Origin: a virus
Lineage: Duplodnaviria; Heunggongvirae; Uroviricota; Caudoviricetes
DNA: 8,645 nucleotides
Virus record (IMG/VR): IMGVR_UViG_2548876856_000015
Direction: 5' to 3' (one strand)
The position numbers and the translations under genes are program-made. The notes under the pieces are model-generated. The model saw nothing but the letters and a program-made list of their open reading frames with translations. It searched no databases and was not told where the DNA came from. Below, in pieces: positions 1,980 through 6,625 of the stretch. Numbering within the stretch: position 1 is the first letter of the stretch; every line of letters begins with the position of its first letter.

Positions 1980-2516
1980 TTAGGATTGCTTATGCATCTT
2001 ATGCAGCTCTTTAAAACGTTCCATAAACATCCCGTAGGCATGGCCCGGTGCCAGTGGAATCACGTTGAACATCTCTGTTGCCGGGATACCTTCCAGTACA
2101 AGCCAGAAAGAGCCATCATCAAGCCCGAGATCGCGGCGTTCGGTTGCCAGCATGATGAGATCGGCATATTTCACGGGTGTACTCATAACTGGGGGTAACC
2201 CGTATTTCTCACGGATTACGGCGTCTATTTTTTCTTCCATCCGTTTATAGTCAGGAAGAAGGCGTTTCAGTGGTGCGGGAATGTCCTGGCAATACGCTTC
2301 TGTTGCATCATGCATTAACGCTTCAAAAGCAAATTCCTGCGGCACCAGCTGGCTGCAAAGAACCGCATGTTGGGCGACGCTGTAGAAGTGCGAAAGATGA
2401 CCGGCAAAGCGGCAGATATTTGAAAGGGAAACCGCGATATCGTTAATAACGATGTCGTCTTTATTTATCCTGTCATAATAAAAATGCTTCCCAGAAAAAG
2501 TTTTAATAAATGACAT
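1980..2516 (-). CDS. HD-domain metal-dependent phosphohydrolase
   Basis: ORF track 1980..2543; the first codon there is GTG. The ATG at 2516..2514 is preceded by GGAGAACAAA and gives a 178-aa product. H...HD signature: SVAQHAVLCS followed by LMHDATEAYCQDIP. Same strand as xis-int, immediately upstream. Confidence 0.75.
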   Translation of the reverse strand: MSFIKTFSGKHFYYDRINKDDIVINDIAVSLSNICRFAGHLSHFYSVAQHAVLCSQLVPQEFAFEALMHDATEAYCQDIPAPLKRLLPDYKRMEEKIDAVIREKYGLPPVMSTPVKYADLIMLATERRDLGLDDGSFWLVLEGIPATEMFNVIPLAPGHAYGMFMERFKELHKMHKQS

Positions 2517-2585
2517 TTTGTTCTCCACGTATATGCGCTGCACCGCGCTGAATTCGGGTAAAAGGAAGCCCTCACCGTCCGGCGA

Positions 2586-2935
2586 TTATTGAGTCGAGTC
2601 AATTACATTTCCATGAATGCCCCCGTAGGGGCGGTTAGTTTCTCCACAAAACAGTGAAGAACACCTGCGGTGGCAGCCGCCTGGATGGATTGGGTTATGA
2701 GCCCGTCGTCCGGTGATGCTCTTCTCTGTTTTGTAAAAAGGACGGTACCAGCCGGAAGCAAGGGTACAAACTGGTACCGTCAAGACTACACACAGCATAA
2801 AGTTGTGGTGCCGGGTGCCTCCCGGTGCCTGGCGAAGGTTGCACACCAGACGGGTGGGTATCCACAGAAGGTCGACTGTCAGCCTCAACCTTAACCCGCG
2901 TGCGCTGAGCCGCATTCACCACAACGCTAAGGATT
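2586..2935. other. GC-rich structured non-coding island (candidate ncRNA or leader/terminator cluster)
   Basis: No ORF with protein-like composition on either strand; track ORFs here overlap each other and are Arg/Cys/Pro-rich. Multiple stems: GCCCC-GTA-GGGGC around 2619-2632; 11-bp perfect inverted repeat GACGGTACCAG / CTGGTACCGTC (2741-2751 and 2771-2781); CCGGG-TGCCT-CCCGG (2811-2825). GGTACC-type motif recurs three times. Confidence 0.3.
2735..2781 (-). terminator. Intrinsic-terminator-like hairpin with T-run (minus strand), between the small ORFs and the HD-xis-int genes
   Basis: On the minus strand: stem GACGGTACCAG (2781-2771), 19-nt loop, stem CTGGTACCGTC (2751-2741), then CTTTTTAC (T-run 2739-2735). 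The loop is long for a canonical terminator. Confidence 0.35.
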
Positions 2936-3035
2936 CTCTCTGGTTGAAAATACTTAGCTGTTATGTGCCTGTCTTTTCACCACTTCAGGCTCGGTGGTAT
3001 CTTGGTGTTTTCATATAGCCAAGAAGGAAATAGTT

Positions 3036-3227
3036 ATGACCAAAGAAGAAAAAATTCTTTATTTATTCCAACTATCGGTTAAGACTCACACTGCATATCA
3101 GACTGCTGCCATGACATCAGATAAAAATTACAGTACGTCAGAAAACCCGATAGACGACATAAGCAAGCTTTACGATAAGTTCGAAGCACTACTCGATAAA
3201 AAGTTTGCTGAGGCTGGGCTTGAGTGA
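3036..3227 (+). CDS. Small hypothetical protein (63 aa)
   Basis: ATG at 3036 preceded by AAGGAAA at 7-nt spacing. Product MTKEEKILYLFQLSVKTHTAYQ...DKFEALLDKKFAEAGLE has natural-looking composition. Stop TGA at 3225-3227. Opposite orientation to the surrounding minus-strand genes. Confidence 0.45.
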   Translation: MTKEEKILYLFQLSVKTHTAYQTAAMTSDKNYSTSENPIDDISKLYDKFEALLDKKFAEAGLE

Positions 3228-3365
3228 TTGTTGAATAATCGACAAAACCCAACTTAAATTTTCGTCAGTGGGCTCGATGCCATGTGCGGTGAGCTCACTT
3301 TTCAAAACTCCAAGCAATTCAGAGCTGATTTTCAATATATCTGCTTGATTTCTAACTATTCCCAC
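3189..3365 (-). CDS. Small hypothetical protein (58 aa from GTG 3365; 68 aa if from ATG 3395)
   Basis: ORF track 3189..3395. The ATG at 3395 has no SD. An in-frame GTG at 3365..3363 is preceded by GGGAGG (3376-3371) with a 5-nt spacer. Product ...VGIVRNQADILKISSELLGVLKSELTAHGIEPTDENLSW.... Overlaps the 3' end of the plus-strand ORF by 39 nt (3189-3227). Confidence 0.45.
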   Translation of the reverse strand: MGIVRNQADILKISSELLGVLKSELTAHGIEPTDENLSWVLSIIQQSLKPSLSKLFIE

Positions 3366-3653
3366 TTTTTCCTCCCTTGGTCTACGCGCGGTCATGTTTT
3401 ACGCCCAAACGACTTCACAGTTATTGTTTAAAATCTGGACTTTCATTTCATACACCTGCTTTAACATGAGTGCCTGGTGGCACAACATGACTCAACGAAT
3501 CATCCTGGACTTCATATGCCCCAGGCGGCTACTTCGTGGGCGTCCTGCCTGTTCGTTTTTGACATTTACTGACTGCTTACGACACATGCACCGTGTTGCA
3601 ACCAGATTTTGTTGTAATCCGGTAGTTGGTCTGGAACAAAAGATAAAATTAAA

Positions 3654-3690
3654 TTGCGAGATATGCAAGTAATATTTGCGAGGTATGCAA
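3654..3690 (-). promoter_or_regulatory. OL-like operator pair, probable leftward early promoter region
   Basis: Two 15-bp near-palindromes, TTGCGAGATATGCAA (3654-3668) and TTGCGAGGTATGCAA (3676-3690), spaced 22 bp apart. Same TTGCG-N5-xGCAA pattern as sites in the cI-cro intergenic region. On the minus strand TTGCAT hexamers could serve as -35 elements. Confidence 0.5.
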
Positions 3691-3703
3691 ATTTATAGGT
3701 AAT

Positions 3704-3724
3704 AAAAAGCCACCTTTCGGTGGC
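3704..3724 (-). terminator. Rho-independent terminator downstream of the cI-like gene
   Basis: Minus strand: GCCACC-GAAA-GGTGGC stem-loop (3724-3709) followed by TTTTT (3708-3704), about 20 nt after the cI stop at 3745. Confidence 0.6.
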
Positions 3725-3744
3725 CGATGGATGGGATATTGAGG

Positions 3745-4437
3745 TTAATTATGTCTCTTAAGGGTTTGCGACTGACTGATTAAGACCTTTCCAAAGACCA
3801 TGAATCGGTGTTCGTTTTCGCTAGTAATTCCCCATTCACGGTAAATCTGGTTATCAGAAATCACCAGCAGTTTGTCAGGAATCATTTGAAGTCTTTTAAC
3901 GTATATTTTGTCATCAAAACCAAAGACATATATACCATCACCATCAAACTGATTGATGCTGACATCAACGAAGATGAGATCTCCTGGCTCAATGGTTGGA
4001 CACATACTGTCCCCACGAACGTTGATAACTTTGATGTGATTGGCTGGTCGTCCGCCGAACATTGATACAGCATTATCAGTTCTGTATTCGATGGCATGAA
4101 TCACATCAATGACATCACCGCCTTGGATAAGGCCATTTCCCGCACTGGCACTGATATCCAGCATTTCAATACGGAACACATCCTTCACCTGCGCAACATC
4201 CTCATTATTACTGTTTTTATATACAGTATTACTTTTGTGGGCAGAGGTAAAGAGATCAGCAATATCAACACCTAAGCTCTTGGCAATATTACTCAGTGTT
4301 TGTTCGGTAAATTGTTTTTGCTTACCCGTTTCTAAGCGCGAGATGTTCGCCGCATCTACTCCTATTGCTTCAGCGAGATCGGCGATTTTCATGTTCTTCG
4401 CTTGGCGAAGTTGTCTGACTCGGTTTCCTATGTTCAT
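3745..4437 (-). CDS. cI: cI-like prophage repressor (N-terminal HTH + C-terminal S24 LexA-like autopeptidase domain)
   Basis: 230 aa. N-terminal HTH_XRE-type segment VRQLRQAKNMKIADLAEAIGVDAANISRLETGK. C-terminal GDSMCPTIEPGDLIFVD (Ser nucleophile) and YVKRL (Lys) match the S24 family. Divergent from the cro-like gene. Confidence 0.9.
   Translation of the reverse strand: MNIGNRVRQLRQAKNMKIADLAEAIGVDAANISRLETGKQKQFTEQTLSNIAKSLGVDIADLFTSAHKSNTVYKNSNNEDVAQVKDVFRIEMLDISASAGNGLIQGGDVIDVIHAIEYRTDNAVSMFGGRPANHIKVINVRGDSMCPTIEPGDLIFVDVSINQFDGDGIYVFGFDDKIYVKRLQMIPDKLLVISDNQIYREWGITSENEHRFMVFGKVLISQSQTLKRHN
4209..4228. promoter_or_regulatory. LexA (SOS) box-like palindrome inside the cI coding sequence
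   Basis: TACTGTTTTTATATACAGTA matches CTGT-N8-ACAG with an AT-rich spacer and TA flanks; about 18 of 20 positions agree with the E. coli consensus TACTGTATATATATACAGTA (from memory). Only CTGT-N8-ACAG match found in a manual scan of the window. Confidence 0.4.
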
Positions 4438-4534
4438 GCGTTTATTACATTTCTTTATTGCGTGATAAGCAAATCAACTTGCGCAAAATAATTGCGTGAA
4501 ATAACATGCATAACGCGCAATATTTGGAGGTTAT
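4438..4534. promoter_or_regulatory. Divergent cI/cro promoter-operator region (OR-like)
   Basis: 97-bp intergenic region between the divergent cI and cro starts. Contains TTGCGTGATAAGCAA (4458-4472), the palindrome TTGCGCAA (4479-4486), TTGCG at 4492, and ATGCATAACGCGCAA (4506-4520; TTGCGCGTTATGCAT on the other strand). GGAGG at 4526-4530 precedes the cro ATG. Confidence 0.55.
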
Positions 4535-5694: not shown

Positions 5695-6625
5695 ATTAAC
5701 CGGCTATGTATGGGATGGTTGCGCAGCGTCAGGCATGAAATTATCCAGCGTGGCAATTATGGCACGCCTGGCTGATTTCAGTAATGACGAAGGTGTGTGC
5801 TGGCCATCAATTGAAACCATTGCCCGCCAGATTGGCGCGGGGATGAGTACCGTCAGAACGGCTATCGCACGGCTGGAAGCAGAAGGCTGGTTAACGCGTA
5901 AGGCGCGTCGCCAGGGTAACCGCAATGCGTCGAATGTTTATCAGCTTAACGTTGCGAAGCTTCAGGCTGCGGCTTTTTCTCAACTGTCAGATTCTGACCC
6001 GTCAAAATCTGACGCATCAAAATCTGACCCGTCAAAATTTGATGCGTCGAAATCTGGCAAAAAAGCGGGTTTTCACCCGTCAGAATCTGGCGGGGATCCG
6101 TCAGTAAAATCAAAACATGATCCGTCAGATAAAAAAACTTCTCGTCCGGACGCTTCGCAACCGGACACGCAGACGGCTGAACAGGATTTTTTAACTCGCC
6201 ATCCTGATGCGGTTGTATTCAGCCCTAAAAAGCGCCAGTGGGGGACGCAGGATGATTTGACCTGCGCACAGTGGCTCTGGAAAAAAATCATCGCCCTGTA
6301 CGAGCAGGCTGCCGAATGTGACGGCGAGGTGGTTCGTCCCAAAGAACCGAACTGGACAGCCTGGGCAAACGAAATTCGCCTGATGTGTGTGCAGGATGGT
6401 CGTACTCACAAACAAATCTGCGAGATGTACAGCCGCGTCAGCCGCGATCCGTTCTGGTGCCGTAACGTGCTCAGCCCGTCGAAGCTGCGGGAAAAATGGG
6501 ATGAGCTTTCCCTGCGCTTATCGCCGTCCGTAAGCACGTACACCGAAAAACGCGAAGACCCGTACTTCAAATCCAGTTACGACAATGTGGACTACAGCCA
6601 GATCCCGGCAGGATTCAGGGGGTGA
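5684..6625 (+). CDS. Replication initiator protein (lambda O-like; N-terminal winged-helix/HTH domain; ori iterons inside the gene)
   Basis: 313 aa. N-terminal HTH segment SVAIMARLADFSNDEGVCWPSIETIARQIGAGMSTVRTAIARLEAEGWL. Internal 5-aa periodic low-complexity region encoded by tandem 15-bp DNA repeats. Position after the cII-like gene. SD GAGG at 5675-5678. Confidence 0.7.
   Translation: MSTKLTGYVWDGCAASGMKLSSVAIMARLADFSNDEGVCWPSIETIARQIGAGMSTVRTAIARLEAEGWLTRKARRQGNRNASNVYQLNVAKLQAAAFSQLSDSDPSKSDASKSDPSKFDASKSGKKAGFHPSESGGDPSVKSKHDPSDKKTSRPDASQPDTQTAEQDFLTRHPDAVVFSPKKRQWGTQDDLTCAQWLWKKIIALYEQAAECDGEVVRPKEPNWTAWANEIRLMCVQDGRTHKQICEMYSRVSRDPFWCRNVLSPSKLREKWDELSLRLSPSVSTYTEKREDPYFKSSYDNVDYSQIPAGFRG
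5987..6061. repeat. Five tandem 15-bp direct repeats (candidate ori iterons), followed by a CCGTCAG repeat family and an A-rich tract to about 6136
   Basis: Repeats: TCAGATTCTGACCCG, TCAAAATCTGACGCA, TCAAAATCTGACCCG, TCAAAATTTGATGCG, TCGAAATCTGGCAAA. CCGTCAG recurs at 6077, 6098 and 6122. GATAAAAAAAC at about 6128-6138. Confidence 0.6.

Follow-up and report, generated by a model that had tools for sequence, protein, structure and literature searches.

A divergent STnc100/PasD-family RNA, annotated as protein in public genomes, in the likely early-left leader of e14/SfII/SfV-like prophages

The closest described relatives of the element considered here are small RNAs (sRNAs) of Escherichia coli prophages. 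PasD1 and PasD2, two pathogenesis-associated sRNAs of enteropathogenic E. coli (EPEC) E2348/69, are prophage-encoded and abundant, and PasD has been recovered on Hfq by RIL-seq (ligation and sequencing of interacting RNAs) and validated by northern blotting. The PasD genes lie in late regions, at most 10 kb from Q and lpxR and near esterase and lysis genes, and the RNAs have been reported as structural homologues of another sRNA, STnc100, with a reported seed that differs from that of STnc100. The latter sits 75 nt downstream of stx2 and has been detected by quantitative PCR in outer-membrane-vesicle preparations of Shiga toxin-producing E. coli (STEC), and EcOnc27/sRNA103 of O157:H7, reported to bind Hfq, partly overlaps the STnc100 prediction downstream of stx2. 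Here, we describe a GC-rich island of 350 bp (positions 2586-2935) in IMG/VR virus record IMGVR_UViG_2548876856_000015 (Caudoviricetes), a stretch of 8,645 nt that we refer to as the window and whose coordinates are used throughout. The window is an e14/SfII/SfV-like lambdoid prophage with E. coli as its host. Judged by homology and covariation, the island is a divergent, minus-strand member of the STnc100/PasD prophage sRNA family, and we think it probably serves as a small RNA and attenuator module driven by the leftward early promoter, pL.

The initial annotation had proposed an Rfam scan and matched the island to no RNA family. At gathering thresholds such a scan of the window returns nothing, as does ARAGORN, but in E-value mode the STnc100 model (RF02076) matches 2732-2955 on the minus strand over its full length (model positions 1-206) with 44.7 bits and an E-value of 1.7e-8, or 2.7e-7 when the whole window is searched. 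A sister copy of the same subtype (L014) scores 47.8 bits, above the RF02076 gathering score, and others lie at 32-40 bits, among them the SfII and ST64B copies with 39.5 and 35.1 bits. Two motifs that are invariant in the family are both found in the window, UGGUGAAU on the 5' side (2921-2914) and CACCGGGAGGCACCCGGCACCA on the 3' side (2828-2806), and from them we derived the family search pattern TGGTGAAT-N75-100-CCGGGAGGCACCCGG. This pattern recovered 109 loci from GTDB bacteria taken as one genome per species, nearly all of them Enterobacterales, as well as more than 120 viral contigs carrying the subtype found in the window; the pooled family set comprises 148 distinct cores.

The core RNA domain defined in this way spans about 124 nt (2802-2925, minus strand) and has a fixed order, consisting of a closing helix P1, a hairpin P2, a variable middle, a hairpin P4 and an invariant hairpin P5. 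P1 (2917-2925 with 2802-2810, followed by the joining AAU) is made of UGGUG/CACCA and about four covarying pairs, while P2 (2898-2913) has a bulged A and a UNNGC loop and covaries family-wide, appearing as CCCCC/GGAGGG, GCGGC/GCACGC, CCACC/GGAUGG, CCUUUC/GAAAGG and others. P4 pairs 2844-2849 with 2829-2834, and P5 occupies 2811-2825. P1, P2 and P5 are paired in 95.7%, 100% and 99.4%, respectively (alignment A2). In addition, the segment just after P2 pairs with the loop of P4 to form an H-type pseudoknot, which in the window joins AAGGUUG (2892-2886) to CAACCUU (2841-2835). Both this pseudoknot and P4 were scored against shuffles in a test that does not depend on register. Of 144 distinct cores, 107 have a pseudoknot of 5 nt or more at the fixed position, built from 53 different sequences, where shuffled loops give one in 6.3% of cases; a P4 of 6 bp or longer is found in 74% of cores but in 7% of shuffles. 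Column-based covariation on a MAFFT alignment gave only 40% paired for the pseudoknot and 60% for P4, a failure that arises because the subtypes are out of register in that alignment. The family pseudoknot was found in this analysis. In the minimum free energy (MFE) fold of the window its 5' strand, AAGGUUG, alternatively pairs with the nearby UCGACCUU (2860-2892, minus strand), and Pantoea-type copies have an analogous local alternative, GACUG...CAGUC; this alternative pairing could be a conformational switch or a coincidence.

Folding of both strands, also suggested at the outset, gave structures better than those of shuffled controls on each strand and stronger ones on the minus strand (minus-strand z of -4.2 for 2730-2960 and -5.1 for 2612-2745; plus-strand z of -3.0 and -3.2, respectively). 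The strand of the RNA is fixed by the pattern of its wobbles: across the five core P1 pairs there are 29 G-U and no A-C combinations, so the RNA is the minus strand, and a U-tract follows the hairpin on the minus strand only. A repeat finder recovered four pairings that the initial annotation lacked, namely the 9-bp closing helix (2802-2810 with 2917-2925), the 7-bp pseudoknot pairing (2835-2841 with 2886-2892), a long helix (2646-2670 with 2710-2734) whose arms of 25 nt are 80% complementary and a hairpin at 2926-2958. The same results bear on the notion that what is conserved is a DNA-level site, such as a recombination hot spot, a module junction or a set of regulator binding sites. The locus does look like a mosaic junction, where accessory genes vary upstream and different genes follow downstream, and it holds palindromes such as GGTACC and GTCGAC. 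However, compensatory changes preserve its helices even where the sequences have become entirely different, the wobbles and the U-tract are strand-specific, and the covariance-model match is to an experimentally detected RNA family; we find a DNA site scarcely credible as the explanation.

The island had been delimited as one unit, yet it proves to be composite: the RNA core is joined through a linker to a terminator, a second leader domain comes after that, and what is conserved reaches past the limits first given, to about position 2995. Its 5' boundary in E. coli is a conserved hairpin, CCACCGAGCCUGAAGUGG (2973-2995, minus strand), upstream of which varied opposite-strand accessory genes (morons) are inserted, as judged from 32 distinct upstream flanks. 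Next comes hairpin P0 (GCUAAG..CUUAGC, 2926-2958, minus strand), seen both as an inverted repeat and in the MFE fold, and then the core, which is about 91% identical to that of ST64B. P1 is followed by a 20-nt linker, UUUAUGCUGUGUGUAGUCUU (2782-2801, minus strand), that is unpaired in the MFE and centroid folds. It differs from the ST64B linker by only two substitutions and one inserted base, though the adjacent terminator stem is wholly replaced there, and it is the candidate seed region should the RNA act in trans; mEp460 and Stx2c phages carry a second linker allele.

The linker leads into an intrinsic (Rho-independent) terminator at 2735-2781 on the minus strand, comprising an 11-bp stem (GACGGUACCAG/CUGGUACCGUC), a 19-nt loop and C-UUUUU, which starts 20 nt after P1, within the 20-60 nt expected for the family. 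The perfect 11-bp inverted repeat listed by the initial annotation (2741-2751 with 2771-2781) is present, but it has a role that the annotation did not give it, as this terminator splits the island into two functional halves, of which the first (about 2958-2735) is the STnc100/PasD-like part; likewise, the GGTACC-like motif that it saw recurring is there, although as the two arms of this one stem and not as a separate motif. The two further hairpins that it named, GCCCC..GGGGC (2619-2632) and CCGGG-N5-CCCGG (2811-2825, our P5), are confirmed, as is the higher GC content (0.51-0.57 over 2601-3000, against 0.36-0.445 in the flanks). In K-12 the terminator stem is kept by compensatory changes (GGCGG/CCGCC), and in ST64B it is fully replaced (GUCGGCGUC/GACGCCGAC), with three consecutive double changes, and still pairs. 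In all, the stem-loop differs from that of ST64B at 25 of 41 positions, with UUUUUACA conserved after it, and it weakly matches the terminator of the DicF model (E 0.076).

Beyond the terminator, a second structured leader domain (2641-2739, minus strand) is formed by a helix of about 25 bp that pairs 2739-2715 with 2665-2641, takes in the terminator U-tract and encloses a small multi-branch loop. An RNAalifold consensus from 55 distinct homologues keeps nearly all of its pairs, with two showing compensatory or multiple pair types. This domain stays with the terminator where other alleles replace the core. In mEp460 (L235 2680-2810, minus strand) and a Stx2c phage (L236 ~2660-2700, minus strand), the terminator and second domain are nearly identical to those of the window, and the core alleles keep P1 as GUUGUGGUGAAU...CACCACAAC but are without the P5 hairpin and differ in the interior and the linker (AGCCACUGCUUUG). 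P5 is also damaged in the K-12 e14 copy (L003 2481-2792, annotated as ymfH), where it reads CCGGG-GGCACCCGA. The leader ends, before yfdR-xis-int, in a terminal hairpin, GCCCC-UACG-GGGGC (2619-2632, minus strand), which in many relatives stands just before the Shine-Dalgarno sequence (SD) and ATG of the next gene, and whose variants (CGACC..GGUCG, GGCGG..CCGCC) keep pairing, with up to four pair types per position.

While these features describe an RNA, public genomes annotate the region as protein. The statement that the island has no plausible coding frame on either strand does not stand as worded, as open reading frames (ORFs) are present in all three minus frames, of 109 aa from an ATG (2586-2915, nearly the interval of the island itself), 75 aa (2695-2922) and 52 aa (2603-2761), with two more, of 74 and 71 aa, on the plus strand. 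The K-12 e14 homologue, at 89% identity, is ymfH (RefSeq YmfH); that of phage SfII is SfII_35, a hypothetical protein in GenBank; and in a genome identical to the window the Prokaryotic Genome Annotation Pipeline (PGAP) calls a frameshifted hypothetical protein coding sequence (CDS), that is, a pseudogene. The homologous region of ST64B, at 77% identity, carries no annotation. A ymfH-like protein gene, or one frameshifted recently, would thus have in its favour the 109-aa ORF and three public annotations, as well as a match of YmfH residues 60-96, and of YmfH alone, to a PHROG family of unknown function (E 1.9e-11). It would also have a phenotype, as a preprint reports that overexpression of 'ymfH' from a clone triggers RcaT, the toxin of retron-Sen2.

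Set against this is the behaviour of the frames themselves. YmfH of K-12 is a mosaic of three window frames, in which a 1-nt deletion shifts the first to the second and a further indel leads to the third, whereas SfII_35 and the 109-aa ORF of the window use one single, different frame. In the mEp460 allele two of the three minus frames have stops within the core, and the third has no start codon and continues past the module. Translated in register, the K-12, SfII/window, ST64B and mEp460 copies thus differ in reading frame. Substitutions by codon position number 18/16/14 against K-12 and 27/27/31 against ST64B, with no third-position excess; internal indels measure 1, 1, 2 and 20/21 nt, not multiples of three; and a Pfam search of the island ORFs matched no family. 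To this can be added the compensatory variation in the stems, with G-U wobbles on one strand only, and the recurrence of the same core with unrelated interior sequence at more than 100 loci in other genera. The protein reading is largely refuted here, and we regard it as very improbable. The island is non-coding, and because the frames differ, the substitutions lack codon periodicity and the indels are non-triplet, comparison of the homologues identifies ymfH, SfII_35 and the 'frameshifted pseudogene' as by-products of a stop-poor, GC-rich RNA gene.

The retron phenotype does not discriminate between the two, since a clone of the ymfH ORF also makes most of the RNA; with most of the module expressed and the ORF doubtful, the active agent in triggering the toxin may be the RNA. 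The initial annotation had offered a decayed gene as one origin of the island, and this is not supported, for the same reasons, namely no conserved frame, no codon periodicity and non-triplet indels among homologues, and is further countered by the same RNA core standing in unrelated contexts across many genera. Its other suggestion, a phage non-coding RNA or structured leader, is borne out by a minus-strand RNA with covarying stems and STnc100 homology, placed in what is likely the leader of the early-left operon. A third option that it named, an antitermination-type element, may also apply, in the form of the action in cis considered below. Aligning homologues, as it had advised, brought out compensatory stem changes and no codon-like pattern, even though an annotated CDS or pseudogene does exist in public records.

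The position of the module is read from the sites to the left of the cI repressor gene (3745-4437). The gene has its own terminator (3725-3708, minus strand; GGCCACCGAAAGGUGGC and a U-run), after which come two 15-bp operators, TTGCATACCTCGCAA (3690-3676) and TTGCATATCTCGCAA (3667-3653), both on the minus strand. These overlap a pL-like pair of promoter elements, a -35 TTGCAT (3667-3662) and a -10 TATCTT (3644-3639), also on the minus strand. The right operator region, OR (4460-4525), has operators of the same TTGCRnnnnnnGCAA type, and mEp460 has the same operator and promoter arrangement as the window. The sites at 3690-3639, which represent a promoter read from sequence and not a mapped one, are likely pL and its operator OL, with a predicted start at about 3632. 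Given this pL-like site left of cI, the leftward early operon would have the island in its leader, some 700 nt past that start. Downstream of the island on the minus strand are yfdR (1971-2516), xis (1680-1925) and int (572-1699), and beyond cI lie cro and the rightward genes, including a cII-like gene and replication genes.

Between pL and the RNA module are two small ORFs whose ends overlap, one of 63 aa on the plus strand (3036-3227; phrog_2605, function unknown), which is convergent with pL transcription, and one of 68 aa on the minus strand (3189-3395; phrog_15476, function unknown), with the N-terminal sequence MTARRPREEK. Other prophages carry different opposite-strand inserts at this spot. 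No annotated N-like function is present between pL and the module, remote N homology not having been searched exhaustively. A promoter-like site, TGGAAA-17-AATAAT (2585-2613, minus strand), stands between the leader and yfdR; it is the sole sigma70-like match in 2400-3800, where 2.3 are expected by chance, and falls within a segment specific to the window/SfII type, so that it may be outside the RNA module and, from its sequence, might give some pL-independent expression of yfdR-xis-int. Two other RNA matches were noted in passing. One, the sole sub-threshold Rfam hit in the window besides STnc100 at this setting, is to the eukaryotic microRNA model mir-5880 in a coding region (5985-6059, plus strand; 30.7 bits against a gathering score of 97), which is almost certainly spurious. 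The other is IsrK (RF01394), which scores above its gathering threshold in the rightward early regions, on the plus strand, of ST64B (L005 5232-5308) and the Stx2c phage (L236 5062-5138) and has no match within the window itself.

Taken together, a probable course of events can be proposed. After derepression, transcripts from the repressor-controlled pL (start at about 3632) would reach the module, and most would stop at 2735, releasing an STnc100-like RNA with a 3' hairpin and U tail. By analogy with PasD, STnc100 and EcOnc27, we propose that the released RNA would be bound by Hfq and pair with mRNAs through its linker, a role that the conserved linker and the 3' hairpin would suit. The terminator would at the same time be an attenuator, holding down the expression of yfdR, xis and int. 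In read-through RNA the second half of the leader (2739-2619) would fold into the helix of about 25 bp that swallows the U-tract; placed before the first protein gene, this helix could be a site of RNase III processing or a stability element. In the K-12 literature, ymfH is grouped in an expression module with intE, xisE and e14 lytic genes, which fits repressor-controlled expression; papers on ymfH, ST64B sRNAs and EcOnc27 contained no transcript mapping for the island locus that we could find.

Several points weigh against this proposal. The match of 44.7 bits falls narrowly under the RF02076 gathering score of 47, which is a narrow miss and not an absence of homology, and the model misses the degenerate K-12 copy and the mEp460 and Stx2c alleles entirely. 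The U-tail, at five U, is short and poor for a classical Hfq-dependent sRNA, and the linker has no complementarity of at least 9 nt to targets within the window. A scan found no sigma70 promoter of its own upstream of the core, where a weak or non-sigma70 promoter is possible; a candidate picked by eye, AAGACA-17-TATTTT, was rejected, as the variant upstream type does not keep it. That RNase III cuts the long helix, plausible as it is, is purely inferential. An sRNA that works by seed pairing would also fail to account for the conservation, in many genera, of a 124-nt core that has a pseudoknot and invariant single-stranded motifs, and for the place of this subtype by cI and pL with a boxA-like motif before it. 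Core conservation, address and motif point instead toward a function in cis or in binding a protein or RNA polymerase (RNAP).

This address separates two subtypes of the family. Promoters, terminators and motifs were counted in 90 distinct canonical copies with enough flank, which have a CCCCC-type P2, and in 62 copies of the GCGGC type found in the window. Under strict criteria a strong sigma70 promoter abuts P1 in 28 of the 90 canonical copies, against 1 of the 62, and in 52 of the 90 a terminator is found no further than 200 nt away; canonical members are free-standing sRNA genes, as the literature also has it. The GCGGC type is a distinct and previously unflagged subtype that public genomes annotate as protein. 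A CUCUU(U/A)-like motif lies 5-12 nt before P1 (-14..-4) in 47 of its 62 copies and in none of the 90. Of 53 distinct GCGGC-type copies, 36 have a cI-like gene on their own strand no more than 2.5 kb upstream, against 0 of 95 canonical ones. In the window the motif is UCCUUAGC (2933-2926, minus strand), a degenerate boxA-like pyrimidine stretch in the 3' arm of P0, directly before P1 and in register with GUGCUCUUUCCGUUG, ACUCUUAUCGUUG and GUGCUCUCAGCGUUG of other copies of the subtype. As AAUCCUUAGCG, it matches boxA (CGCUCUUA or UGCUCUUUAACA) at 4-5 of 7 positions, and in the same register ST64B has ACUCUUA and Pantoea-type copies have UGCUCUUU, the boxA core of rrn operons and lambda.

Other arrangements occur as well. 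Canonical genes can form tandem arrays of two or three at a spacing of 150-600 nt, as in Superficieibacter electus (L028 6378-6998), Trabulsiella odontotermitis (L084 280-1335) and L039, L027 and L064; most members of the arrays come with a TTGAC-type promoter of their own, the sequences of pseudoknot, P4 and linker differ among all of them, and they look like diversified sibling sRNAs. In prophages of Lelliottia, Pseudescherichia, Scandinavium and Buttiauxella (L013, L014, L018, L036), P1 is extended to about 20 bp and the SD and ATG of a small ORF follow the core by about 25 nt (about 45 nt in Buttiauxella) with no terminator, so that here the fold is used as a 5' leader.

Such observations raise the alternative that the core acts in cis on transcription, from the position that nutL and putL hold in other lambdoid phages. 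On this account, the nascent boxA-like motif and the pseudoknotted RNA would modify the elongating polymerase, either directly, in the manner of HK022 put, or through NusB, NusE or a phage protein, and the modified polymerase would read through the adjacent terminator and later ones, or resist Rho on the long untranslated leader, allowing expression of yfdR-xis-int. Besides the cI address, the near absence of own promoters, the motif and its true boxA form in Pantoea-type copies, this would give a use to a deeply conserved tertiary fold suited to binding a protein or RNAP, and would explain how some 2 kb of early-left genes escape a strong terminator 20 nt past the core that would otherwise block them, in a phage where both ORFs from pL to the element belong to PHROG families of unknown function and no annotated protein is N-like. 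Yet the HK022 immunity region, home of putL and putR, shows no sequence similarity to it; put and nut sites occur as L/R pairs, whereas the window has a single copy, with none after pR; and the motif of the window is degenerate (AUCCUUA) and sequestered in P0. Furthermore, several copies used as 5' leaders have no terminator after the core, and relatives with the same core are stand-alone genes, each having promoter and terminator, whose transcripts build up as separate sRNAs bound to Hfq. Such behaviour would be strange in an RNA that protects the polymerase transcribing it against termination. We consider an action in cis unlikely, though it is the main rival. A broader form of it, frankly a long shot, would have the GCGGC-type core, together with the boxA-like motif, as a new class of cis-acting signal that heads the pL operons of e14, SfV, ST64B and Pantoea-type phages, which have no recognisable N, and for which any action in trans as an sRNA would be secondary; it would work by put-like processive antitermination or Nus-dependent Rho resistance, and the free-standing STnc100/PasD sRNAs would be derivatives of it or decoys for the same partner.

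The sRNA and attenuator module that we favour has consequences for annotation. DNA identical or near-identical to the window is found in many complete genomes, and the island itself is matched in 2776 of 5426 complete E. coli genomes, about half, with at least 80% of it covered in 1825; one of the carriers is K-12, where the e14 copy goes under the name of ymfH, a y-gene without a characterised function. Once the element is seen to be an RNA, YmfH drops out as a phantom protein, and experiments with ymfH clones, such as the screen for triggers of the retron toxin, can be read anew. The STnc100/PasD family is extended by a conserved pseudoknotted core across many genera of Enterobacterales, and by a distinct subtype that standard Rfam thresholds miss and that has a fixed address downstream of a phage repressor gene. 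The combination of this address with a boxA-like motif and an adjacent terminator turns into a testable question the matter of how these lambdoid phages, with no recognisable N protein, get past the first early-left terminator so that xis and int are expressed. The element would be of high interest only if it did prove to act as an antiterminator in cis.

Among known systems, STnc100 is the closest, sharing with the island the invariant motifs, P1, P2, P4 and P5, the position of the pseudoknot, a 3' linker with an intrinsic terminator and a prophage location. The island differs from it in scoring just under the gathering cut-off, in having GCGGC/GCACGC instead of CCCCC/GGAGGG as P2, in having no promoter abutting P1 and a boxA-like motif before the core, in its shorter U-tail and the second conserved leader domain that follows, and in lying downstream of cI in the early-left operon and not downstream of stx2 or near Q, esterase or lysis genes. 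PasD1 and PasD2, placed here from their description in the literature and not by comparing sequences, are likewise prophage-encoded and presumably of the same fold family, given that they are called structural homologues of STnc100, but their genes belong to late regions near Q and lpxR.

Put-type antitermination is cis-acting and proceeds through the zinc-binding domain of the RNAP beta' subunit. Like the island, putL and putR of HK022 involve a structured RNA in the pL leader, no recognisable N protein and a terminator next to it. However, put is about 70 nt long with two stems, against a pseudoknotted core of about 124 nt; it comes as an L/R pair, against one copy in 8.6 kb that include cro, the cII-like gene and the replication genes; and it directly follows pL, against a distance of about 700 nt here and relatives that are free-standing sRNA genes. 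The HK022 immunity region has no family motif and no blastn-short match better than chance. With the nutL site and N leader of lambda (boxA, boxB, RNase III site, tL1) the resemblance lies in the succession of elements on the pL transcript, where a motif resembling boxA precedes a structured RNA, then a terminator, and lastly a long helix upstream of the next gene. The motif of the window is degenerate, however, and boxB is a 15-nt hairpin that binds N, where the window has the 124-nt core and no boxB-like hairpin; within the limits of the search for N given above, neither an N homologue nor a counterpart of nutR was found in the window. Finally, DicF of the Qin prophage and StxS, from the pR' transcript of Stx phage, show no homology to the body of this RNA, the former being a 53-nt processed RNA and the latter arising at tR', but they resemble the island as small RNAs that come from within, or from early termination of, lambdoid operons under the control of a repressor or an antiterminator.

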